Shown in pieces: positions 1 through 11,189 of a stretch of DNA of 64,000 nt. Numbering within the stretch: position 1 is the first letter of the stretch; each line of letters begins with the position of its first letter. Below the pieces are notes generated by a model. That model was not told the DNA's origin. It ran no database searches and saw only the letters and a program-made list of their open reading frames with translations. A program made the translations under genes and the position numbers. The DNA is from an uncultured Candidatus Saccharibacteria bacterium (GTDB lineage Bacteria; Patescibacteriota; Minisyncoccia; Phycocordibacterales; UBA12088): assembly GCA_964521185.1 (NCBI GenBank), contig CAZFRC010000003.1, positions 2,112-66,111 of the forward strand, written 5' to 3'.

Positions 1-1456
1 TTGGATCATTTCACTTGGCAGAAAAGGCTCAGTGGAACTGGAGATCAAGCAGAGAATGCTTGAGGCGAGAGAGGAAGCAAAAAAGATAATCGAGGAAGCC
101 AAAGAAAAAGGAGAAGCGATCGAAGCAGAAAAACGAGAAGAATTTAAAGAGCGAGAAGAAGATCTGAAAAAGACCGAACAACGCCTTATCAAAAAAGAAG
201 AGCTTCTTGATACACGTCAACTTGATCTCGACAAAGAATCAGAGTCGGTAAAAAAGAAAGCTGTCGAAGTTGAGGTGTTGCACGAAAAGGCCGTTTCCGT
301 TGAAAAACAAAAAGAAACGGAACTTTCTCGGGTTGCCGGATTGTCAAAAGATGAGGCGAAACGAGAACTTATTTCCAGAATCGAAAAAGAATCAGAGGAG
401 GATCTTGCCATCCGTATCCGAAAACTTGATCAAGCTGGTCACGAGCAGTTTGAACGCAGAGCCCAGGAAATACTGACCAGTGTCATTCATCGGTTAGGCA
501 ATTCGGTTGCTTCAGATGTTTTGGCTACCACCATCACAATCCCAAACGATGAACTCAAGGGGAAAATTATCGGCAAGGAAGGGCGCAACATTAAAGCATT
601 CGAGCGCGCGACGGGAGTTGAAGTCATCATCGACGACACGCCGGGAGCAATTACCCTCTCTTCTTTTGATCCTGTCCGCCGACAAATTGCTCGAGTAGCG
701 CTTGAAAACCTTATTATCGACGGCCGTATCCAACCAGCAAAGATTGAGGAAATGGTTGAAAAAGCTAAAGAGGAGATAAACAAGATAATTAAACAAAAAG
801 GGGAAGAAGCTGCCTATGAGGCGGGTGTCTTTAATCTAAATCCGCGAACGCTTGCCATCTTAGGAAGGCTCCATTTCCGTACAAGTTATGGACAGAACGT
901 GCTTCAGCATTCAATTGAGATGGCGCATATCGCAGGTATGCTCGCTGAAGAAATAAAAGCCGACCCCCAAATTGCACGCGCAGGGGCGCTTGTACACGAT
1001 ATTGGCAAAGCCCTCGATCATGAAGTGCAAGGATCCCATGTCGAAATTGGTCGCCGCATTCTTCAAAAATTTGGCGAGGATGAACGCATCGTCAAAGCAA
1101 TGCAGGCGCATCATGAAGAATACCCATACGAAACTCCTGAATCTATTTTGGTTCAAGTGGCTGATGCGATTTCTGGGGCACGGCCAGGAGCGAGACGCGA
1201 CACCGTTGAAAACTATCTAAAAAGACTCTCCGATCTTGAAGGAGTGGCTAATTCTTTTTCCGGTATTGAAAAAGTGTATGCGATTTCCGCAGGCCGTGAA
1301 ATTCGAGTGTTTGTGCGCCACGAAGAAGTCTCCGATATCGAAGCCAGAGAGCTTGCACGAAATATCGCAGTAAAAATTGAACAGGAACTTAAATATCCTG
1401 GCGAAATTAAAGTGGTGGTTATCCGCGAAAACCGCGCCATTGAGTTTGCAAGGTAG
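1..1456 (+). CDS. rny: Ribonuclease Y (5'-partial at window edge; the track ORF begins with GTG at 32 but the frame is open back to base 2)
   Basis: KH motif GKIIGKEGRNIKAFERATGVEVIIDD; HD domain HDIGKA...H; long charged coiled-coil N region typical of RNase Y; the N-terminal TM helix is missing, so the gene is probably truncated by the window. Confidence 0.9.
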   Translation, partial: WIISLGRKGSVELEIKQRMLEAREEAKKIIEEAKEKGEAIEAEKREEFKEREEDLKKTEQRLIKKEELLDTRQLDLDKESESVKKKAVEVEVLHEKAVSVEKQKETELSRVAGLSKDEAKRELISRIEKESEEDLAIRIRKLDQAGHEQFERRAQEILTSVIHRLGNSVASDVLATTITIPNDELKGKIIGKEGRNIKAFERATGVEVIIDDTPGAITLSSFDPVRRQIARVALENLIIDGRIQPAKIEEMVEKAKEEINKIIKQKGEEAAYEAGVFNLNPRTLAILGRLHFRTSYGQNVLQHSIEMAHIAGMLAEEIKADPQIARAGALVHDIGKALDHEVQGSHVEIGRRILQKFGEDERIVKAMQAHHEEYPYETPESILVQVADAISGARPGARRDTVENYLKRLSDLEGVANSFSGIEKVYAISAGREIRVFVRHEEVSDIEARELARNIAVKIEQELKYPGEIKVVVIRENRAIEFAR

Positions 1457-1476
1457 CGCTTCGCTAAAGAATATTG

Positions 1477-2034
1477 TTACCGTGTGGCAGCAATAAACGC
1501 CGTGTAGTTGAATTTCAAATCTTGAATACTTTCTTCAAGAATGTCGAGACCGTACATGGATGCCGCTGTTTTTGACGCAATAACCGCGGTCGTATCCGGC
1601 AAAACGCCGCTTCCTAAATCTGCCGCGGCCTTTGCGGTGTCTGGGTAAGTTTCGATATCAACGCCAGGCCATTTGCGCTTCAAGTACATGCGGCACTGTT
1701 TGATCGCCTGATCGTGCGAGGTGATTTTGGTGATATGATCGGGATTAGTCCCCGAACGAACAAGAAGGTTTTGATGAATATCAATTTCGAACATCTTTTG
1801 AATTGAAAAGGAGTGTTTGGCCATCGCGTACACCGCCTCAATGACAATACCGCCGTTCGAGTTTTCAATAGGGAAAATTCCAAGGTCCACATCCCCCTTT
1901 TCAAGAGAAGTAAGGACGTTTTCCACAGATACTAAATAAAGAATTGCCGCGTCTTTTAGAGCATTTTGGCCAATATAATAGTTGGCAGCTTCTTCTGAAA
2001 AACTTCCTCTAGCTCCAGAAATACCTATCTTCAT
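1477..2034 (-). CDS. Prephenate dehydratase (PDT) domain protein, no ACT domain
   Basis: 185 aa; N-term KIGISGARGSFSEEAA and an ESxxxG-like VENSNGGIVIEAV segment match the PDT family pattern; short form. Confidence 0.6.
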   Translation of the reverse strand: MKIGISGARGSFSEEAANYYIGQNALKDAAILYLVSVENVLTSLEKGDVDLGIFPIENSNGGIVIEAVYAMAKHSFSIQKMFEIDIHQNLLVRSGTNPDHITKITSHDQAIKQCRMYLKRKWPGVDIETYPDTAKAAADLGSGVLPDTTAVIASKTAASMYGLDILEESIQDLKFNYTAFIAATR

Positions 2035-2184
2035 AAAAAAACGGCTTAAAATATACGTTAAATAAACACCCCGAAGTATACCATGTCTATTTCCCCGAAC
2101 TATTCAATGGAGACTAAAGTAGAATTGACTTGGCGCGTATACTGTATTGTAATATATTACCCTCTAGTTTACTCTTTGACGAAG

Positions 2185-2212
2185 TTGCAGCAAAAATGGC
2201 GAAAGATATACT
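2185..2212 (+). promoter_or_regulatory. Candidate sigma70-type promoter for hup: TTGCAG, 16-nt spacer, TATACT
   Basis: -35 at 2185-2190 and -10 at 2207-2212, about 85 nt upstream of the hup start; a short GC hairpin (CTCCGG...CCGGAG) lies in the leader. Confidence 0.35.
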
Positions 2213-2295
2213 TACTTTTAAGGAACGAGCTCCGGCCCCTCTCTGCCCGGAGGCACGCCTAAAGTAACGATTAGTAGATAAGTGAGTTCGAAATT

Positions 2296-2574
2296 ATGAA
2301 CATGAACAAACAAGATATTATCAATAAGGTCCACGAAGTACTCGGAACAACCAAAGCAGATGCAGAGCGCGCAGTTGAGACAATGATTGAATCAATCATT
2401 GATGGCCTTAAAAAAGGTGGCGAAATATCGGTTGCGGGTTTGGGTATCTTTGCAACAAAAATGCGCCCCTCACGGACCGGCCGCAACCCCCGGACAGGAG
2501 AGTCGATTCATATCCCTGCTATGCGGGTTCCAAAGTTCCGTGCAGCTAAGGCATTCAAAGACTCGGTAAAATAA
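2296..2574 (+). CDS. hup: HU-family DNA-binding protein
   Basis: 92 aa; [10 protein letters not shown]...[42 protein letters not shown] is the classic HU/IHF arm. Confidence 0.93.
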   Translation: [92 protein letters not shown]

Positions 2575-2595
2575 TGTGCGCTCGTAATTCCGTAC

Positions 2596-2626
2596 AAAAA
2601 CCCACGTTTCGGGGGTTTTTGTTTTT
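2596..2626. terminator. Bidirectional intrinsic terminator between convergent hup and rarA
   Basis: AAAAACCC-acgtttc-GGGGTTTTT hairpin, A-tract on one side and a T-run (tttttgttttt) on the other. Confidence 0.7.
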
Positions 2627-3749
2627 ATAGCAAATACTTCTTATTTTTTAGTTTTTCCGGCAAATATGATTCTTGGTCGTACATTTCGTATCCTTTACCG
2701 TATTCAAGATCTTTCATGAGTCTGGTTGGCGCATTTCTAATGTTAAGCGGAATCGGAAGATTGCCATACTGAGCAACATCTGCTTGTGCGGCACGAAATG
2801 CGTCGTAGGCAGAACGATCTTTTTTTGCTCCCGAAAGATACGCAGCGCCATGAGCAAGATTGATTGCACATTCAGGATATCCGATAGTTTCACACGCTCG
2901 AAATACCGCATTTGCCACCACTAACGCGGTTGGTTGGGCTAATCCAATATCTTCGGACGCAAATATAACCATACGACGAGCAATAAACAGCGGGTCTTCC
3001 CCCGCATCCACCATGCGCGCAACATAATACAGCGCCGCATCCGCCTGACCAGCGCGCATGCTTTTTATAAATGCCGAAATGGTGTCGTAGTGTTCCTCAC
3101 CCTTTTTGTCATAACGAATAAACTTTGACTGAAGTGCTTCTTTGAGTGTATCCAGAGTGATCTTTCCATAGAGTTCTTTCGCGTTCTCCACGACAGAGAG
3201 GGCAGCGCGCGCGTCGCCATTTGCCATCCCTATCAGCCATTCGATGGCGTCATGCGGAATTTTTAGTTCGGTGCGCGCCAAAATTGTTTCCATGCTTTTT
3301 TCGTCAACTGAATTGAGCACAAACACACAACACCGAGAAAGAAGTGCTGGAATAACTTCAAATGAAGGATTCTCTGTTGTCGCGCCAACGAGCGTGATAT
3401 CTCCCGATTCAACATAAGGAAGAAGAAAATCCTGTTGTGCCTTGCTAAAACGATGGATTTCATCGAGAAATAGCACCCGAGGCCTGTTCGTCTCTTCTTT
3501 TAACAATCTCCTGATATCGTCTTTGCCTGCGGAAACCGCCGAAAGCTCATGGATATGCGCATCGAGCGCGCGAGCGTATATGCGCGCGAGCGTAGTTTTT
3601 CCGCATCCTGGAGGTCCCCACAAAATAAAAGAAAATCGATGTTTTTTTTCAATCGCTTCTCTTAACGGTTTTCCTTGAGCAACAAGATGTTCCTGTCCGA
3701 CAAATCCTTCGAGAGAATCGGGGCGTATGCGCGCTGCAAGCGGTTCCAT
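2625..3749 (-). CDS. rarA: Replication-associated recombination protein A (AAA ATPase RarA/MgsA)
   Basis: Walker A GPPGCGKTTLARIYA; Walker B LFLDEIHRF; canonical N-term MEPLAARIRPDSLEGFVGQEHL. The start is placed at the internal ATG (3747-3749); the track ORF extends to 3806. Confidence 0.9.
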   Translation of the reverse strand: MEPLAARIRPDSLEGFVGQEHLVAQGKPLREAIEKKHRFSFILWGPPGCGKTTLARIYARALDAHIHELSAVSAGKDDIRRLLKEETNRPRVLFLDEIHRFSKAQQDFLLPYVESGDITLVGATTENPSFEVIPALLSRCCVFVLNSVDEKSMETILARTELKIPHDAIEWLIGMANGDARAALSVVENAKELYGKITLDTLKEALQSKFIRYDKKGEEHYDTISAFIKSMRAGQADAALYYVARMVDAGEDPLFIARRMVIFASEDIGLAQPTALVVANAVFRACETIGYPECAINLAHGAAYLSGAKKDRSAYDAFRAAQADVAQYGNLPIPLNIRNAPTRLMKDLEYGKGYEMYDQESYLPEKLKNKKYLL

Positions 3750-3880
3750 AGGAGATAGTGTACGCTTCCTTTGAAACTTTTCGAGCACGAAAACAAATGT
3801 CCCCAATTCTGGAAACAGATCCTGTACGCGTCACCGAGGCGAAGGGAGGGGCAAACGCTAGGTTGGAATTTCTTTTCTGG

Positions 3881-3907
3881 TGCGGGATAGGAGAATCGAC
3901 CCGCTTT
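3881..3907 (-). repeat. Partial copy of the 3' end of tRNA-Gly(UCC) with encoded CCA (T-loop/acceptor fragment)
   Basis: The minus strand reads GCGGGTCGATTCTCCTATCCCGCACCA, and about 18 nt are identical to the 3' end of the intact tRNA-Gly at 4067-4137. No upstream tRNA body is present. Confidence 0.5.
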
Positions 3908-4066
3908 TTCTAAATCACTTCGTCCTAGACGGCGAAGCTCATAAGAACGCTGGCCGCACCTCGCCGACCCCTCGAAGACTCGGGGTGCCCGGCTCCGGCG
4001 TCCGACTCTCCTTTCCTCGTCACAAAATATAGTCGCCAAACGCTTTACGTTTTGCTCTTTATTTTG

Positions 4067-4137
4067 TGCGGGATAGGAGAATCGGACTCCTGCTCTCAGT
4101 TTGGAAAACTGACGTTCTACCATTAAACTAATCCCGC
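4067..4137 (-). tRNA. tRNA-Gly (anticodon UCC)
   Basis: Hand-folded cloverleaf: acceptor GCGGGAT/ATCCCGC, D-arm GTTTAATGGTAGAAC, anticodon loop TTTCCAA, T-arm AGGAG-TCCGATT-CTCCT, discriminator A; no CCA encoded. Confidence 0.85.
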
Positions 4138-4268
4138 CTGCGCTCTTTCCGCACCAGAGGGGCAACTCTAAGCGGTAAGAAGAGCACAACTCCACCTCTT
4201 TCGAAGTGTTCGAATCATCCTAGCAGAATCTTGGAAACCCTACCAATGGCCATGCTATACTCATCGAA

Positions 4269-5573
4269 ATGGATAAATTTTCATTTCCCATCCTTGGCGG
4301 CATACTTATTGGGATTGCAGTTATTGGGGTCGCGATGTTTAGCGCATTACGCACCCCTCCATCGAATAAAGAATCTGTAGAAATTCCTAGAACGAACAAT
4401 GGTTTGAGCACTTCTTCTCCATTTTCAGAGATAGAAGATGGCGATCCTGTTGATGAAATTCGATTATCCCCTTCCAAATCCCCCACGCGACCAGAGGGAA
4501 AAATATCGATCCCTTCGAATCCATCTCAAGAAACACCGTCTAACACCCCGTCATACCCGCCAACACCAACAAATCCTTCAAACACGGAAACGAATAGCAC
4601 GCCGAGCTCTTCGTCTTCCGATGGCGGAGGACGGATAGAAGAAGGAATGACACCTCCTCCGCCTCCACCCTCATTTGCCCCGCCGGGAGGATCTTCGTCA
4701 GCCGCCCCATCCGGGGCGCCTTCCTTTTTTTCGGGGCTAAACGACATCGTGCGCGCATCTGTTGTCAATATTTTATGCGAAACAAACGGTGGAGGATCGC
4801 TTCGCCCCATTTCAGCAAGTGGTGTTATGGTGAGCAAAAAAGGAGTCATCATGACAAACGCCCACGTTGCTCAATATTTTCTCCTCAAAAATTATCCGAC
4901 CCCAAACTATGTGACGTGTATCATTCGAACAGGAAGTCCGGCCGCACCCGCATACACCGCTGAAATTCTGTACATATCTCCCCAATGGATTGAAAAAAAC
5001 GCCTTAAACATACGTTTGTCCGAACCGCGCGGAACCGGTGAACACGATTTTGCATTTTTACGCATTACAGGAAGCATGAGTGGTGCGGCGCTTCCCTCTT
5101 CGTTCCCCTTTGTGCCTCCTGACACTGCGGAAAGCGACATACAGGGAGGTGCCGGCGTACTCATTGCTGGATATCCCGCAAGCTTTGTGGGCGCCTCAAC
5201 GGTAATGAGGGATCTCTACGCAGCGTCCACTTTCTCGACGATTGGAGAAATTTTTACGTTTGTTAAAACAACCGCCGATCTTTTCTCAGTTGGCGGAACG
5301 GTGTTAGCCCAAAAAGGAGCTTCGGGAGGCGCAGTGGTAACGCTTTCGGGAAAATTAATCGGCATGGTCGCAACCGCCCAAAGCGGCGAAACCACCGGTG
5401 AAAGTGACTTACGTGCCCTGTCTCTCTTCTATATCAATCGAGCGCTTGCAGAAGATGCCGGAATTACGATTGACGGGCTTCTTCAGAGTGATCTTGTGGC
5501 GTACGCAAACACGTTCAACGCGACCCGATCACCAGCACTTACTCAGATATTAATAAATGTATTAGGGGAATAA
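4269..5573 (+). CDS. Membrane-anchored trypsin-like (S1/HtrA-type) serine protease with a Pro/Ser/Thr-rich linker
   Basis: N-terminal TM helix (FPILGGILIGIAVIGVAMF); low-complexity P/S/T/G region; C-terminal domain with TNAHV (His) and GASGGAVV (Ser) motifs resembling GNSGGPL of S1C peptidases. Confidence 0.6.
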   Translation: MDKFSFPILGGILIGIAVIGVAMFSALRTPPSNKESVEIPRTNNGLSTSSPFSEIEDGDPVDEIRLSPSKSPTRPEGKISIPSNPSQETPSNTPSYPPTPTNPSNTETNSTPSSSSSDGGGRIEEGMTPPPPPPSFAPPGGSSSAAPSGAPSFFSGLNDIVRASVVNILCETNGGGSLRPISASGVMVSKKGVIMTNAHVAQYFLLKNYPTPNYVTCIIRTGSPAAPAYTAEILYISPQWIEKNALNIRLSEPRGTGEHDFAFLRITGSMSGAALPSSFPFVPPDTAESDIQGGAGVLIAGYPASFVGASTVMRDLYAASTFSTIGEIFTFVKTTADLFSVGGTVLAQKGASGGAVVTLSGKLIGMVATAQSGETTGESDLRALSLFYINRALAEDAGITIDGLLQSDLVAYANTFNATRSPALTQILINVLGE

Positions 5574-5574
5574 A

Positions 5575-5611
5575 GGGATCAAAAACAGCAACACGACCCC
5601 TTGAGGTCGTG
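5575..5611 (-). terminator. Intrinsic terminator oriented for the minus strand (CACGACC-ccttga-GGTCGTG, then a U-tract on the minus strand)
   Basis: 7-bp GC stem at 5592-5611; the minus strand continues TTGCTGTTTTTGATCC. On the plus strand only an A-tract precedes it, so it is directional. Confidence 0.55.
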
Positions 5612-5697
5612 TGATGGTTGGCGGGGAGTGCAAAGAACTTATTTATGCACTCACCCGCCTCCCTGATCTCAGGAACCGCCTGCTAGAGGCGGTTCGA

Positions 5698-5916
5698 CTA
5701 CCGATTCGTCGATATTCGGGCGCGGCTCCGCCGCGGCCGGCTCGAGTTTGGAGGGTTTTCCTGACCCCCCTTGCGGCGGCGCTCGAGCTCGGCAAGCGCC
5801 GCTTCCAAACATGTTCGGAATTCGTCCCGACAGGGTCTTCCTTCGGAACACCGCCGCCTCAAGGTGGCGATGCGCCGGTGAAGCTCGTCGTCGGACAGGA
5901 GCGAAAAAAGATTCAT
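5698..5916 (-). CDS. Hypothetical small Arg-rich protein encoded inside the high-GC island
   Basis: 72 aa, MNLFSLLSDDELHRRIATLRRR...; SD-like GGGGGAG 7 nt upstream of the ATG on the minus strand; third codon positions are strongly G/C, unlike neighbouring genes. High GC gives open frames on every strand, so the coding status is uncertain. Confidence 0.3.
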   Translation of the reverse strand: MNLFSLLSDDELHRRIATLRRRCSEGRPCRDEFRTCLEAALAELERRRKGGQENPPNSSRPRRSRARISTNR

Positions 5917-5946
5917 AAGTCATCTCCCCCACCAAGACCGCCCCAT

Positions 5947-5998
5947 GCGGTCCGGGAATCGAATTTCGATTAAAATCAAAAATCGATTCCCAGACCGC
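5947..5998. repeat. 16-bp inverted repeat (one mismatch) with a 20-nt spacer at the edge of the GC island
   Basis: gcggtccgggaatcga ... tcgattcccagaccgc; an inner tcgaatttcgat palindrome lies in the spacer. Confidence 0.5.
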
Positions 5999-6057
5999 AA
6001 AATTGGAACTCCGGCTGTTCGGGCATTACTTGAACATCCGGAGTAAGTGTACAGCAA

Positions 6058-6294
6058 TCATCGAAAGAGACGCTCTCTTATAAAATGTGCGAACCGATAC
6101 ACATGATACCGCTCCGGAAGACGATTCAGGAGCAGAAGCTCTTGAATGACTTCGTCCGTTGTTTCAAATCCAGCGGCCATAACCCGCCGCAAACACAGAC
6201 AATTTCGAAGCAATTGTATGTTGCCGCCGTTTAAAGCGGAGAAAATTGCTGGGTGTTCCATGCCCCACGCGCGTTCGTGCGAGTGATCGGGCAT
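6058..6294 (-). CDS. Hypothetical small protein, about 78 aa from an internal Met
   Basis: ORF MPDHSHERAWGMEHPAIFSALNGGNIQLL...; the N-terminal extension in the track is only the translation of the 15-bp palindrome at 6308-6352. Confidence 0.25.
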   Translation of the reverse strand: MPDHSHERAWGMEHPAIFSALNGGNIQLLRNCLCLRRVMAAGFETTDEVIQELLLLNRLPERYHVYRFAHFIRERLFR

Positions 6295-6377
6295 CGCTCC
6301 CTCCCTTCTGGTTGGGACACAAATTGCTAAAAGCCGCTTGTGTCCCAACCAGAATTCTTTCAAAGAACTCCTCCTTC

Positions 6378-6409
6378 AAAAAAAACCAGCCCCCGATTCT
6401 CTCGGGGGC
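6378..6409 (-). terminator. Strong intrinsic terminator on the minus strand (GCCCCCGA-ttctc-TCGGGGGC, then TTTTTTTT on minus)
   Basis: 8-bp GC stem at 6389-6409 immediately followed, on the minus strand, by an 8-T run (plus-strand A-run 6378-6385). Confidence 0.7.
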
Positions 6410-6621
6410 TTGGCTTCTTTGATGGAGTTTCGAACCTATTCCACAGAAACACCCGCCCCCGATGTAAGGATGAGGACCCAGAGGACAGATGCTTTGCGGT
6501 ATTGGTTCATATGTTATTGAATGTACTTGTACTGAACATATGTGTCAAGTATTTATTCACAACATTGCCGAACAAAAAGAAACCGCCTCGTCGCGAAGAA
6601 TAGTGCGACGGGCGGACGGAT

Positions 6622-7080
6622 TCATACATCGTCTACCACCGCGACCGGCATATGTCGCGGATCAGCACCGAGCTTAAAATCATCGGCGCTGATAATTCTG
6701 TCATACAACAAACAGGGAGGAAGTTCCGAGTCATGAGCCAATCTCAATCTCAAACTCCTTAGAATATGCGGAAATAGCTTGCGAGCTGTATCCCTTGACA
6801 GCTCGCAACAGGGAATCGTAGGGTGGGGAAAATGGAACCATAATTTCTTTATCTTGCTATCGATCATTATTCATATCCCCTGCATCGCGAGAGATGGAAG
6901 AACTATTTGTATCATTACTTCTTTCCTATATTCTGAATTATCTTTCATGCGGCAAGCTATTTCTTTCCCCAGTATTTGATACAATTTAAATTCTTCCTCA
7001 TCCGATAATTGATGCTCATTATTTAATTTTCTTACAAACCCAAGAATTTTTTTCGCATCTTCACGCGACAAACAAATCAT
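6622..7080 (-). pseudogene. Possible disrupted gene: two same-frame minus-strand ORFs (6871-7080 and 6622-6867) separated by one stop codon
   Basis: Both ORF ends are congruent mod 3, and a single stop lies at 6871-6873. No recognisable domains; low confidence. Confidence 0.2.
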
Positions 7081-7103
7081 TGACCTCCTCCCAAAGAACT
7101 AAT

Positions 7104-7202
7104 CGGACACACCATTGTGTCCGAAGAATATATTTGTTTGAAGGTTCAAATATATTCTTCGGACATCAACCAAAACACCGGCTTTGTGAGCCGGTGTTTT
7201 GG
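7104..7202. repeat. Cluster of three perfect palindromes with 8-bp, 18-bp and 13-bp stems
   Basis: cggacaca/tgtgtccg at 7104-7123; gtccgaagaatatatttg / caaatatattcttcggac at 7119-7164; ccaaaacaccggc / gccggtgttttgg at 7170-7202. Confidence 0.6.
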
Positions 7203-7829
7203 TTGAGGACATGTTGTTTCTTATACGCAAAAACGACCGGCTTCTTTCCTGTCGGTAATAATCGAAATAATGATTGTTGCCTTTTGTATCCCGGTCACAC
7301 TGTTAATGTAAGGCAGCCAGGGACTCCAGTCAAGGTAACTCGCTTCGTATTCTCCTTCTTGCTTTTCATGAAAAATATGCATGAGCTCTTGAACATAAAA
7401 AACTGTTTCGAATTTTAACGTTCTCCATGTGTACTTGAAATGAAATCCGCATGACGCGACAAGAGTTGAACTTGCGCGCCGTGCGGATATCGAGGTTAAC
7501 AAACAAAGACTCTCGCCAAAGGAAAAAGGGGATGGTCGAGAGTAACATTTGACTGTTCCAAATATCTTGCAACGATAATTCTGTCTTTTTCTTTCATTCG
7601 AGAGATAATCTCCATGGGAGAAACCCCCCCTCTTATGAGAGAGGCAACCCCTTCTGTCCATTCACCAAAATTCTCCTCGGTTGGAGACGAATATATTTTG
7701 AAAAATTCATCAACCGTTAACCCATCGTTCACCATCATCTTCTCCTTGCAAGCTCCGACCGCACGAGCTTGCGTTTGTTTGAAAGAACATCTGCGGTCTG
7801 GATTGTGTTCGGGAAATTCCCGCTCACTG

Positions 7830-7866
7830 TCCAAAACACAAAGACCGGCCCTTTCGGGCCGGTCTT
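7830..7866 (-). terminator. Candidate minus-strand terminator downstream of the sigma/anti-sigma operon
   Basis: AAGACCGGCCC-tttc-GGGCCGGTCTT (11-bp stem, 7841-7866), followed on the minus strand by TTGTGTTTTGG. Confidence 0.4.
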
Positions 7867-8182
7867 GATGAAATCTTTAGTGAAGAAGTTACATGCAAGG
7901 AAAATCGACCCAACGATTAGTGTCGGTAAAGAAGAAATAAAACCAGGAAGATCGATTACTCTCCATGAAAAATATCATATCGAGGAAAAGGAAGTATTGT
8001 CAACTGTATACCGCTATCCCCGCTGTTTTTCGAATCATCTCCTTTCACTTCGTGGGGAGAGACTCTACGAACTATCATTGCATATTTGCACGCGAAGCAT
8101 GCACCGCGCGAGAGGAGGATGCCCTTCTCTCGCACGGGAACTTTTTCCTATGAAACAGATTTGAAAGCCTCGGAATCGTAGA

Positions 8183-9421
8183 CTAACGATCATTCTTATC
8201 CCCACGGACATCTTCGCTGCTTTCTTTTTCACGCATGCCCAGTTGTTCCGTCGTATAACGAATATCCATTCCAACACGAATGTGTGTCGTTTGTCGCAAC
8301 ACACCACGAAACGTTTGATAGGCATTGTGCCAATCGCCGTTTCGAATAAACTCTTCGCCAGACTCAAACATGATTTCAATAGCTTCAAGTTTCTTTCTTG
8401 TTTCATCATCAACCAGAGAAATTCGTTTGAGCAGTTGTCCAATTTCACGTCTCGCATGATCTCTAGATCGTTCCACTATGCGAATGAATAATTTTTGTGT
8501 ATCAACTTCTATCGTTTGTGTTGACGATGCATGGTGTACACGAGAAGAATCTGGAGAAGATTCCTCTTTGGCAGCGCCAATGCTTGGTGCCGGAGAATCA
8601 TTTGTTATCGCGCTCGAAACTTTCAGCGCGGTGGGCGGATTTTCGCTATCCCTATTGATCGGGGAAATACCCTGAGCGGTACCCGCAGCTTCTGTTACTA
8701 TTGAAAATGTTCCAAATGAAGATTGTGCCTCTGGAGCATATGCAAGTAACAGAGCCTCCGTATGTATTGCTGTTTTTTCTTGCACATCTCGCATAACTTC
8801 TGATACCCGAGACGCCGCCTGAATTGAGATATCCCCTGCCCCAAGGTGTGCCAAGGCTTCTGTGTGCGCTCGAAGTGCGGCGTCGAAGTTGTCGAAAAAA
8901 TTGACGGCGACATCAGGTGTCCTAATTTCAATTGCAGCAATATGTGCAGTGACTTTTTCCGCCTGTGTTTCAAGCTGAAGCACTATTTTTTCTTCAATGT
9001 CTGGGGTAAGATCCCCCTTAAGCGCTAGCGCATGCACTTCTCTAAGACGTCGTTCCATTCTTTTAGTTTCCCACGACACCCTACTTTCTTCTGTAAAAGA
9101 GAACGCGAGTCGAATTTCTTCGTTGACATGGGTTTTAACAAGATGAAGTAATTCTCCGGGTAATGCGCGTTCTGCCGCATATGATATGCCTCCCCCTGAA
9201 ACGATGAGCGTTATGCCAAGGAACGCGGGGATCAGAGGAGCGCGAAGAATTCCAAAAAACAGAGTCCTGGTATGTTTCGGCGAGCTTATTGACGAAGCGT
9301 CAGGACGTATTGGATGAAGAGATCGGTATTCGCGCAACACATCTCGCATGCGCTTCTTTTCTGCCTCTTGCATTCGCATGGAGAGCGCAGCGTGTGTAAT
9401 GATGTCGGAAAATTTTTTCAT
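8183..9421 (-). CDS. Putative anti-sigma factor / membrane protein: cytoplasmic N-term, one TM helix, large extracytoplasmic domain
   Basis: The start codon overlaps the stop of the upstream ECF sigma gene (ATGA, 9421-9424). TM segment LIPAFLGITLIVSGGGISYAA; helical extracytoplasmic region as in anti-sigma or DUF5667-like partners of ECF sigmas. Confidence 0.5.
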   Translation of the reverse strand: MKKFSDIITHAALSMRMQEAEKKRMRDVLREYRSLHPIRPDASSISSPKHTRTLFFGILRAPLIPAFLGITLIVSGGGISYAAERALPGELLHLVKTHVNEEIRLAFSFTEESRVSWETKRMERRLREVHALALKGDLTPDIEEKIVLQLETQAEKVTAHIAAIEIRTPDVAVNFFDNFDAALRAHTEALAHLGAGDISIQAASRVSEVMRDVQEKTAIHTEALLLAYAPEAQSSFGTFSIVTEAAGTAQGISPINRDSENPPTALKVSSAITNDSPAPSIGAAKEESSPDSSRVHHASSTQTIEVDTQKLFIRIVERSRDHARREIGQLLKRISLVDDETRKKLEAIEIMFESGEEFIRNGDWHNAYQTFRGVLRQTTHIRVGMDIRYTTEQLGMREKESSEDVRGDKNDR

Positions 9422-9423
9422 AT

Positions 9424-10023
9424 CTATTGTTGGAAATGCTTCATCCTCTCTTCAAATGCCGTTTTCAATTTACGCATACTTCGATGAAGTCGAACCGATA
9501 CCACGTTCTCCGACTCCCCCACCAGTTTGGCAATTTCTTTTGGAGAAAAGCCATCAATATACCGAAGCGTCACCATATTCCGATACTGTTCTGGAAGCAC
9601 AGATAAAAGTTCCATAAGTGCTTCCGCATCGAAACGAGTAGCGGCCTCTTCTAATGCCCCATCAATCACAAGATCATCAAAACTTCCTTCCGAAGTAGTT
9701 TCGTCTTCAAGAAGTGCATCGAGAGAAGCGGTCTTCTTTTTTCGATACTCATCGATAATAAGATTGTTGAGCGTCTGATAGAGAAAAGCCCGTAAGTCTT
9801 TTACCGCGTTTCCTTTTTGAAGATAATTCCACACCCGCATGAAAGTTTCCTGTGTTATATCTCGTGCACGTTCTTCGTCGGAAATACGAAAAAATGTGTG
9901 CCGAAACAATGCATCAGCATATTGTTCAAACGCCTCCGTAAAAAGCTCTTCGACACTTTTTAGAACCATGTTCTCCTCGAAATAAAGACGGGTAGTACGC
10001 AAAACGCTTTCATGAGTTTTCAC
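9424..10023 (-). CDS. RNA polymerase sigma-70 family, ECF subfamily
   Basis: 199 aa; region 2 (ETFMRVWNYL) and region 4 HTH (SPKEIAKLVGESENVVSVRLHRSMRKLK). Confidence 0.85.
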   Translation of the reverse strand: MKTHESVLRTTRLYFEENMVLKSVEELFTEAFEQYADALFRHTFFRISDEERARDITQETFMRVWNYLQKGNAVKDLRAFLYQTLNNLIIDEYRKKKTASLDALLEDETTSEGSFDDLVIDGALEEAATRFDAEALMELLSVLPEQYRNMVTLRYIDGFSPKEIAKLVGESENVVSVRLHRSMRKLKTAFEERMKHFQQ

Positions 10024-10170
10024 TATACGCTAGGTATGGTTTCTCTTGCTACTCCTCATCGATAGCATAAAATCTCCCTCGGTTAATACAGAGTGCGGGG
10101 TCATTTCGTATATGAAAAATTTTTTAGCTTTCACAAAAAAGCGCTTTCTCATTTCCAGTTCAGCAAAAAG

Positions 10171-10243
10171 TCGGGGTGCCGGGATTCGAACCCGGAGTCA
10201 CTTGTACCCAAAACAAGTATGTTAGCCGTTACACCACACCCCG
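10171..10243 (-). tRNA. tRNA-Pro (anticodon UGG)
   Basis: Hand fold: acceptor CGGGGTG/CACCCCG, anticodon stem CTTGT/ACAAG with loop TTTGGGT, T-arm CCGGG-TTCGAAT-CCCGG, discriminator A. Confidence 0.8.
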
Positions 10244-10374
10244 ACTTTTGGCTGAACTGTCTTTCCTAACTTAATATGTGGAGAATTTTTTCCCCACAAG
10301 TATCTAAGGCAATACACCAAACCTATGCGTACAATGTTACCTACGAAACTACCCCCCTCTTGAAACAAACGAAA

Positions 10375-10758
10375 TCACACCAGATCCTCAAGAATCGAAC
10401 AATACGCTAATCTCCGGGTAAAATCTATCCTAACAATGATCGCGGAAATACGATAGTCTTTCTGCGCTAACGTAGCGTGCTCAAGCAAGTAACTCTGCAC
10501 GGTGCGGTCTAACTTTTCGAGCTTTTGTGAATGGATATTTTCTTCTGGCCGTATAGCGCTCAAAATATGCTGGCCGGTCTTGACTTCAAAAAAAACTGTT
10601 GTGTCTCCCTTTTGTGCGACTATATCAATTTCCCCCCAAGGTTTTCTATAATTCCTTTCCAAGACAACATATCCTTTACGGCACAAAAATTCCACGGCAA
10701 CATCTTCGCCCATTTTACCCACTGATTGTGTTTTTCCAATCCCGTAATTCCAGGTCAA
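10375..10758 (-). CDS. yraN: YraN/UPF0102 family endonuclease-like protein
   Basis: GEDVAVEFLCRKGYVVLERNYRKPWGEIDIVAQKGDTTVFFEVKTG matches UPF0102; the start may be the internal Met at MGEDV. Confidence 0.7.
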   Translation of the reverse strand: MTWNYGIGKTQSVGKMGEDVAVEFLCRKGYVVLERNYRKPWGEIDIVAQKGDTTVFFEVKTGQHILSAIRPEENIHSQKLEKLDRTVQSYLLEHATLAQKDYRISAIIVRIDFTRRLAYCSILEDLV

Positions 10759-10911
10759 AGTCCTATAATTATCCTTATTTTAAGCCGTTTTAATAAAAAT
10801 CTTCTTTTTTATTTTTAATGTACTTTGTCCTTTATACACTAATCCCCACAGTTATCCCCATACTTTTTATGATAGAGATGTCCTTTGAAAAAGGCTGTTG
10901 TTTAACTTTTG

Positions 10912-10982
10912 TGCGGGTAAGGAGAATCGAACTCCTGTCTCGTCCTTGGCAAGGACGCATTCTACCACTAAACCATACCCGC
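10912..10982 (-). tRNA. tRNA-Gly (anticodon GCC)
   Basis: Hand fold: acceptor GCGGGTA/TACCCGC, anticodon stem CGTCC/GGACG with loop TTGCCAA, T-arm GGAG-TTCGATT-CTCC, discriminator A. Confidence 0.85.
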
Positions 10983-11117
10983 TTTGGCTCTTGGGAAAGG
11001 GTTCGTTCGCCCAAGCTTCGATTCGAAGCGTATCATTTCTCATTATGCTCTTCAAGCGAAGTATTATCGAGCGCACCCGAAAACACGGCGGTCTCCTAAT
11101 TATTTTTTGAACTCCTG

Positions 11118-11189
11118 TGCCCCCGCCAGGACTCGAACCCAGAACAACAGTTCCGAAGACTGCTGTGATATCCATTTCACCACGGGGGC
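11118..11189 (-). tRNA. tRNA-Arg (anticodon UCG)
   Basis: Hand fold: acceptor GCCCCCG/CGGGGGC, D-arm GTGA-AATGGATA-TCAC, anticodon stem GCAGT/ACTGT with loop CTTCGGA; the T-stem has two G-U pairs. Confidence 0.7.

Follow-up and report, generated by a model that had tools for sequence, protein, structure and literature searches.

A GC-rich patch in a Paceibacterota genome is probably a conserved minus-strand gene for a 72-aa protein

The 64,000 nt of DNA analyzed here (GenBank assembly GCA_964521185.1, contig CAZFRC010000003.1, positions 2,112 to 66,111 of the forward strand; referred to as the window) come from an uncultured member of the Paceibacterota, within the candidate phyla radiation (CPR), and contain a short GC-rich patch at positions 5612–5945. 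Sequence comparison leads us to regard this patch, with a probability of about 0.8, as a genuine conserved protein gene on the minus strand that is accompanied by a conserved leader hairpin and a conserved terminator. These parts appear to form a self-contained minus-strand transcription unit for a protein of 72 amino acids (aa). By the same comparison, the protein seems to represent an undescribed family of small proteins with two known members, both of them from Paceibacterota.

The unusual composition of the patch was confirmed. Its G+C content is 0.611, compared with 0.461 for the whole window. A previous reading of the DNA, the first-pass annotation, had put the patch at about two-thirds G+C, which holds for the core (0.647 over 5660–5900) but not for the whole stretch; its hand count of 40 G+C in the 60 nt of 5701–5760 matches the computed value of 0.667 exactly. 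The description of the flanks as far more AT-rich was right in direction and somewhat overstated, as the flanking genes have 46–50% GC. When all 334-nt segments of the 64 kb were compared (mean G+C 0.461, standard deviation 0.037), the richest segment was the one starting at 5620 (0.620, z ≈ 4.3), while the runner-up anywhere reached 0.56. In the Logan assembly of run SRR10095373, a 10.9-kb contig is identical to positions 236–11146 of the window, and the patch is therefore not an artifact of one assembler.

The gene is an open reading frame (ORF) at 5698–5916 on the minus strand, with a TAG stop codon at 5700–5698. Both its 72-aa translation and its G/C-rich third codon positions are as first described (G+C of 0.62, 0.58, and 0.70 at codon positions 1, 2, and 3, respectively). 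By exact look-up, no gene call for this product exists in the databases, and word-indexed protein searches gave nothing for it. When the 72-aa sequence was run exhaustively with HMMER against 1.84 billion representative proteins, a single match emerged, P0003, a protein of 78 aa that is colinear over residues 6–64 (E = 8e-4, 36% identity). Pairwise BLASTP between the two proteins gave 5e-12, and a profile built from both sequences retrieved only the query itself or P0003.

P0003 is encoded in another Paceibacterota genome, GCA_964411375.1 (locus L084), where it occupies the identical syntenic slot. The gene order in L084 is UPF0102, tRNA-Pro, sigma factor, DUF5667 protein, a spacer of ≈2 kb, P0003, convergent protease, RarA, HU, and PDT. 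The identities between the window and L084 are 57% for the sigma factor, 33% for the DUF5667 protein, 54% for the protease, and 75% for RarA. As the marginal E-value is combined with exact synteny, P0003 is very likely the orthologue of the 72-aa protein.

Counted from Met6, P0003 is 73 aa long and can be aligned with the 72-aa protein from end to end, with 25 of the 72 residues identical, one single-codon (3-nt) gap, and coinciding stops. The 25 invariant positions include L12, R14, R15, I16, A17, L19, R20, and C23 as well as G26, R27, P28, R30, D31, L37, A39, E43, R46, R47, G51, and Q52. When all pairs of frames were compared, the frame of the ORF scored 105 against a shuffle mean of 25 (standard deviation 4.7, z = 16.9). 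The codon alignment contains 40, 33, and 51 differences at positions 1, 2, and 3, and the proportion of differing sites is lower for nonsynonymous (pN 0.51) than for synonymous sites (pS 0.77), the latter being saturated. No DNA-level match in either the spacer or the small gene was found with blastn between the two loci, and in tblastx the 72-aa gene is the only conserved item between the DUF5667 gene and the protease gene. Frame, length, and ends are conserved, and similarity at the protein level exceeds that at the DNA level. Because the similarity is protein-level and frame-specific without being visible in the DNA, we interpret the minus-strand ORF as a protein gene. The first-pass annotation had also considered that the patch might be part of a longer conserved gene; what L084 shares in this slot is a small gene.

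The family is very narrowly distributed. No DNA, protein, or hairpin of the patch was found in the RarA loci of 80 relatives with blastn, tblastn, nhmmer, or a six-frame hidden Markov model (HMM) search. A scan of JGI metagenomes with the protease gave two distant loci only (45–47% identity), neither of which carries the module, and there was no match to the protein profile in IMG/VR and no DNA-level match to the patch in phage and plasmid collections. The conserved 16-mer CCGGAYYGCATGGGGC gives 39 matches in IMG/VR, none of them with the protein, and these were put down to chance.

The same order of elements is seen in both genomes: a terminator-like hairpin, a leader stem-loop ending in GCAUGGGGC, GGAG, the ORF, AUCAGGGAGG with a hairpin in the 3′ untranslated region (UTR), and a terminator. 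Nothing in the spacer is conserved between the two apart from the ORF, the leader hairpin, and the 3′ elements. The leader stem-loop (5946–5999, minus strand) consists of a 17-bp outer and a 7-bp inner stem and is not followed by a U-run on either strand. Its arms (5946–5971 and 5974–5999) are 26 nt each and 88% complementary; the 16-bp inverted repeat noticed before at 5947–5998 is thus present, but longer than described. Two G-U pairs in the minus-strand RNA correspond to C-A mismatches on the plus strand, and for this reason the stem-loop forms better on the minus strand. The counterpart in L084 (9921–9987) is a perfect 28-bp hairpin, also without a U-run after it. In the alignment of the two hairpins 23 pairs are kept, with seven compensatory double changes, two changes from G-U to G-C, and no broken pair. 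The conserved GCAUGGGGC (5940–5948, minus strand) forms the 3′ foot of the hairpin and is identical in L084. A covariance model of the leader, run over 1.3 Mb of the relatives' loci, matched in these two genomes only.

Upstream of the leader hairpin, and ≈8 nt from it, lies a 13-bp hairpin followed by UCCAAUUUU (inverted repeat I8; 6008–6044, minus strand). L084 has an analogous hairpin of 12 bp (9881–9908) located 12 nt before its leader hairpin. This element is likely a weak terminator or the boundary of the preceding unit. On the downstream side of the leader, the ribosome-binding motif GGGGGAG could be located at 5930–5924, 7 nt before the ATG as previously noted, and the orthologue has a corresponding GGAG that precedes Met6 by 9 nt and aligns with it. 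In addition, a short upstream ORF with no ribosome-binding motif in front starts in both genomes at an AUG within GCAUGGGGC. In the window this ORF (5946–5920, minus strand) has eight codons (MGRSWWGR) and ends 3 nt short of the main ATG; in L084 (9985–10026) it has 13 codons and overlaps the Met6 start.

On the 3′ side, a perfect 9-bp hairpin directly past the stop codon (5673–5695, minus strand) is specific to the window and absent from L084. The motif AUCAGGGAGG (5667–5658) precedes the 3′-UTR hairpin, which is seen in folds with arms at 5620–5632 and 5646–5659. Motif and hairpin together span 5620–5667 on the minus strand, and both also occur in L084 at 10241–10295. The minus-strand terminator described earlier was recovered by a terminator scan at 5581–5612. 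It has a G+C-rich stem of 9 bp (5612–5591, five G-C pairs) followed on the transcribed strand by the U-run UGCUGUUUUU, the tail given by the scan being TGCTGTTTTT. It sits 8–39 nt beyond the stop codon of the convergent protease gene, with which it is shared, and this arrangement is conserved between the window and L084. The equivalent hairpin in L084 (10337–10357) has T-runs on both sides and is bidirectional there. The patch and its hairpins each occur once in the window, and we rejected a repeated element, such as a miniature inverted-repeat transposable element, as an explanation.

Several points weigh against our interpretation. The evidence for coding selection is one pairwise comparison between two members with saturated synonymous sites. 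No sigma-70-type promoter was found before the unit in either the window or L084. GGAG, GAGG, or AGGA at −18 to −5 precedes only 2 of the 38 long ATG-initiated ORFs of the window (with uncurated starts, every ORF being assumed to begin at its first ATG), a lower share than the 10% obtained for random positions. This suggests that the host makes little use of Shine-Dalgarno pairing, and GGGGGAG alone is therefore weak evidence here. The coding part taken by itself folds somewhat better than shuffled sequences (z = −2.35 in the window and −3.34 in L084). It also contains a 15-nt hairpin, GGGUCAG(G)AAA(A)CCCUC, that is near-identical at the nucleotide level in both genomes (5750–5770 on the minus strand and ≈10164–10181 in L084; GGGUCAG..AAACCCUC). 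A 2-nt loop indel in this hairpin is out of codon register and falls where the amino-acid sequences diverge; the hairpin could be due to chance or be an RNA-level element. Furthermore, the most suggestive functional feature of the protein, its basicity, is not conserved in the orthologue. Finally, neither a donor nor a further homologue was found in the 80 relatives, IMG/VR, the JGI metagenomes, or 15 billion proteins, and the replacement scenario proposed below for the origin of the patch is one that we infer from composition alone.

The codon usage of the gene is foreign to its host. The coding sequence has 63.4% GC and a G+C content at third positions (GC3) of 0.694, compared with 53.9% and 0.431 for the same protein written in host codons. 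For the 32 long ORFs of the host, GC3 averages 0.425 ± 0.047 and does not exceed 0.517. Arginine accounts for 17 of the 72 residues and is encoded by eight CGG, five CGC, two CGA, one AGG, and one AGA codon. The codon-usage check proposed in the first-pass annotation thus gave a clear difference, CGG making up 8 of 17 Arg codons in the small gene vs 11% in the host. An amino-acid make-up rich in Arg, Ala, Gly, and Pro explains roughly 45% of the GC excess, and synonymous codons ending in G or C explain ≈55%. The untranslated parts lie 15–20 points above host intergenic DNA (56.5% GC in the 3′ UTR and 62% in the 5′ leader vs a host non-ORF average of 42%). Host-like GC is seen in the leader hairpin (44%) and the terminator (50%). 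The orthologue has 49% GC and a GC3 of 0.44, in a genome that also has 46% GC, and its isoelectric point (pI) is 5.4, compared with 11.3 for the 72-aa protein. As the orthologue is ordinary in GC and acidic, neither the high GC nor the basicity is a family trait. The earlier suggestion of a small basic protein is accordingly right about the protein gene, and its basicity is peculiar to this copy.

By its GC3 (0.694 vs 0.431), the gene deviates from its host in composition and codon usage, as horizontally acquired DNA would. As the slot and the whole module are common to a relative with ordinary GC, any transfer must have been a replacement of the resident gene. The horizontally acquired micro-island proposed at first is thereby supported in its foreign composition (GC3 0.69 vs 0.43), but not as an insertion, since the slot and module are shared with L084. 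A match to a high-GC lineage, named at the same time as a sign of transfer, did not come up in the searches, and the one homologue, P0003, is from a genome with 46% GC. We tentatively see the replacement of the resident allele by one from a GC-richer relative as the most likely cause of the composition. The allele would have evolved for a long time in a genome of the same clade with ≈58–62% GC, and would then have replaced the resident copy through recombination, with the conserved hairpin and the terminator as the limits of the exchange. In the wider clade, GC goes up to 59%.

It is rather doubtful, though worth serious consideration, that the high GC instead arose in place, either by GC-biased repair or conversion in the segment bounded by the hairpins or by selection, which would act for a stable mRNA or for the Arg-rich tail. 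This explanation concerns the origin of the composition only. It fits the position of the gene in its ancestral slot, the host-like GC of the flanking hairpin and terminator, and the lack of a donor in the searches named above. It fits less well with the joint shift of all three codon positions and the untranslated regions or with a choice of Arg codons (CGG and CGC) strongly unlike that of the host. Nothing similar is seen elsewhere in the 64 kb, and GC-richer members of the clade do exist.

The nature of the patch itself could be questioned in a different way. The minus strand might give rise to a structured non-coding RNA, or to a dual-function RNA, that begins at the long hairpin and ends at the terminator, with the ORF being incidental in stop-poor, GC-rich DNA. 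We consider this very unlikely, even though the 426-nt unit folds far better than shuffled sequences (z = −7.45, and −10.3 for the L084 unit), the leader hairpin covaries, and the coding parts of both genomes contain mildly significant structure, including the 15-nt hairpin shared despite an indel that ignores the codon register. High GC within an AT-richer genome is also typical of structural RNAs. However, most of the fold signal resides in the separate hairpins at either end of the unit, the plus strand gives an equally strong one (z = −7.73), and the orthologue is not GC-rich. The body of the unit cannot be aligned with L084 as DNA, but its translation is clearly similar in one frame only, where start and stop coincide and the indel measures 3 nt. 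A scan of the whole window against Rfam 15 at the gathering threshold gave seven tRNAs only and nothing in the patch. At E ≤ 10, the region 5400–6200 gave only hairpin-type matches to microRNA models (10–24 bits vs thresholds of 48–90). No tmRNA, RNase P RNA, signal recognition particle RNA, or 6S RNA was among the matches, in agreement with the first-pass annotation, which had recognized none of them. The structured RNA that it offered as an alternative applies to the 5′ hairpin, which behaves as a conserved RNA structure, and is not supported for the remainder of the patch.

The genes around the unit bear on another explanation. On the protease side, the window contains RarA/MgsA (2625–3806, minus strand) and a membrane-anchored trypsin-like protease (4269–5573, plus strand), with tRNA-Gly(tcc) listed between them. 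On the other side are a DUF5667 membrane protein (8183–9421, minus strand), a group-4-type sigma factor (9424–10023, minus strand), and tRNA-Pro(tgg) (10170–10243, minus strand), past which lies a UPF0102 protein. The relatives of RarA at 64–76% identity are all from metagenome-assembled genomes of Paceibacterota/Parcubacteria. Fourteen relatives share the order tRNA-Arg, tRNA-Gly, UPF0102, tRNA-Pro, convergent protease, tRNA-Gly, RarA, with 10–1100 bp between tRNA-Pro and the protease stop, compared with 4.6 kb in the window. In nine of the 14 this slot is 10–200 bp long, and in the other five it has ≈0.5–1.1 kb with unrelated cargo ORFs of 132–335 aa. At ≈4.5 kb each, the slots of the window and L084 accommodate the small gene along with the sigma factor, the DUF5667 gene, and the spacer. 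Within the clade, the interval from tRNA-Pro to the protease is a hotspot of variation, and the GC-rich patch lies at its protease end. A literature search for DUF5667 yielded no papers.

In such a hotspot beside tRNA-Pro the patch might be a functionless remnant of foreign or decaying DNA that is under no selection. The variability of the slot, with its unrelated cargo, the foreign composition of the patch, and the lack of any homologues for the adjacent 2.2 kb (6000–8180) would all be in keeping with this. Against it, the ORF, the leader hairpin, and the 3′ elements are the sole conserved parts of the spacer although the proteases are only 54% identical. Because nothing else has been kept in the spacer of such diverged genomes, purifying selection is indicated. 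The window also contains no integrase and no att-type tRNA repeats. We therefore give a functionless remnant slightly less credence still than a structured RNA.

The 2.2-kb spacer at 6000–8180 contains only short ORFs, none with a homologue or family. It has three perfect hairpins of 17–19 bp (6306–6354, 7118–7165, and 7166–7206); the 64 kb contain about six long hairpins that are perfect or nearly so, these three included. A strong terminator on the minus strand lies at 6410–6388. The corresponding spacer in L084 (7900–10000) is non-homologous and equally rich in hairpins. The tRNA-Pro(tgg) gene lies within a 23-nt inverted repeat (10156–10178 and 10237–10259, 96% complementary), so that its leader and trailer would lengthen the acceptor stem by ≈14 bp; L084 has no such extension. 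In L084, the 3′ half of tRNA-Pro is partly duplicated at 5971–6021 (21/21 and 13/14 nt identical, T-loop replaced), ≈40 nt after the intact tRNA and upstream of the sigma factor gene, with no equivalent in the window. The copy may be a scar of integration or excision, and it adjoins the tRNA and does not bound the block. We tried and rejected a tRNA-targeted integrative island as an explanation: in the window the 3′ half of tRNA-Pro is not repeated, and there is no integrase among the ORFs of 5575–10170.

The plus-strand ORF at 5611/5614–5973 (119–120 aa) that the NCBI and Logan gene calls carry as entry P0001 has next to no chance of being the true gene: it is the longest ORF in the patch, is the one picked by the gene callers, and has GAGG 7 nt before its ATG at 5614, but it has no homologue except itself among 5.8 billion proteins, its frame scores only background (23) against L084, where the matching strand is broken into pieces of 60 and 34 aa with no long antisense ORF, its start lies within the terminator stem and its 3′ end crosses the first arm of the leader hairpin, and its Pro/Arg/Ala-rich product is typical for the antisense of a GC-rich gene. 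This database ORF is an artifact of stop-poor, GC-rich DNA.

The structure of the 72-aa protein was predicted with AlphaFold2 on the two-sequence alignment. The model has helices at residues 9–24 and 31–51 and a disordered Arg-rich tail, with a mean predicted local distance difference test score (pLDDT) of 72 and values of 79–89 for the helices. The loop between the predicted helices, GRPCRD, is conserved as GRPxRD. Searches of Pfam-A and PADLOC gave no family match, the best match in PHROGs (E = 0.061) did not identify a family, and the best NCBIfam match, NF047331, reached 19.5 bits (E = 5.9e-4), below its curated cut-off of 33 bits. The identity with phage head-tail joining proteins implied by NF047331 was rejected, as the match is below the cut-off and not colinear. 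Foldseek against PDB retrieved helical hairpins such as uL29, all at E > 1 and with TM-scores of 0.4–0.6. The best PDB profile match was a designed helical protein, and similarities to PAS/LOV and HPF in the PDB searches (E ≈ 0.1) were judged to be noise.

If the unit is read as a protein gene, its mRNA would start at or just before the leader stem-loop. The stem-loop probably acts at the RNA level, although we hold this view only tentatively. It could be a 5′ stabilizer or a site cleaved by an RNase III-type enzyme, specific for double strands, which would free the small mRNA from upstream transcription. The protein might fold into an antiparallel two-helix hairpin with a disordered tail and would then bind a partner protein or nucleic acid rather than act as an enzyme. 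A role as a small binding or regulatory protein is our best guess from the model, with less than even confidence. In both genomes, the genes for the sigma factor, which is of the extracytoplasmic function (ECF) type, and for the DUF5667 membrane protein share the strand of the small gene and lie 2–4 kb upstream of it, and the small protein may be tied to this pair. A more far-reaching proposal, which we think quite unlikely, is that hairpin, gene, and terminator form an exchangeable cassette that is swapped whole, through recombination at the structured ends, between Paceibacterota that differ greatly in GC. In such a cassette the small regulatory protein would act on its own leader stem-loop or on the sigma factor/DUF5667 pair. 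Were the proposal true, the patch would record recent gene flow among CPR lineages in a form that can be dated, which is rare.

What we describe is a very narrowly distributed new family of small proteins, of an ordinary kind, and not a new type of element. The public annotation with its antisense ORF of 119 aa is a typical error for a GC-rich patch, and it hid the family from protein databases. The composition of one allele points to exchange between CPR lineages that differ in GC. The case will be of use mainly for cataloguing small proteins and gene flow in the CPR and leaves the current understanding unchanged.

Parts of the unit resemble known systems. Hairpins that stabilize 5′ ends or are processed by RNase III are found in the ompA and aprE leaders and at intercistronic sites of T7 and lambda. 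Like these, the leader stem-loop is a near-perfect stem of 24–28 bp that heads a short predicted mRNA, has no U-run, does not sequester the ribosome-binding site, and is maintained by compensatory changes. The hairpin is predicted, and only the two G-U pairs speak against a function in the DNA itself, for instance as an operator bound by a dimeric regulator. Tracts of atypical composition in a variable slot 3′ of a tRNA, here tRNA-Pro(tgg), are also seen in tRNA-linked genomic islands. Unlike those islands, the segment has no integrase and is not bounded by a direct repeat of the tRNA end, and its GC-rich part is only 330 bp long and 4.2 kb from the tRNA.

The protein shares with NF047331 (gpW-like) its small size, its helical nature, and an LSxxELxxRIAxL helix. 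This similarity covers 20 residues only, matches helix 1 here to the C-terminal helix of the model, and is not accompanied by phage genes nearby or by relatives in IMG/VR. Helical hairpins of the uL29 type have a size similar to that of the predicted antiparallel two-helix hairpin, but the resemblance is one of generic fold only (E > 1). The closest parallel in kind may be the orphan small proteins of CPR/Patescibacteria annotated as "hypothetical protein," which are likewise short, belong to no Pfam, NCBIfam, PHROG, or PADLOC family, and occur in very few genomes and in variable regions. In contrast to these, the 72-aa protein has a syntenic orthologue that supports coding and a gene with conserved RNA structures on both sides, and it is encoded on the strand opposite to the public gene calls.

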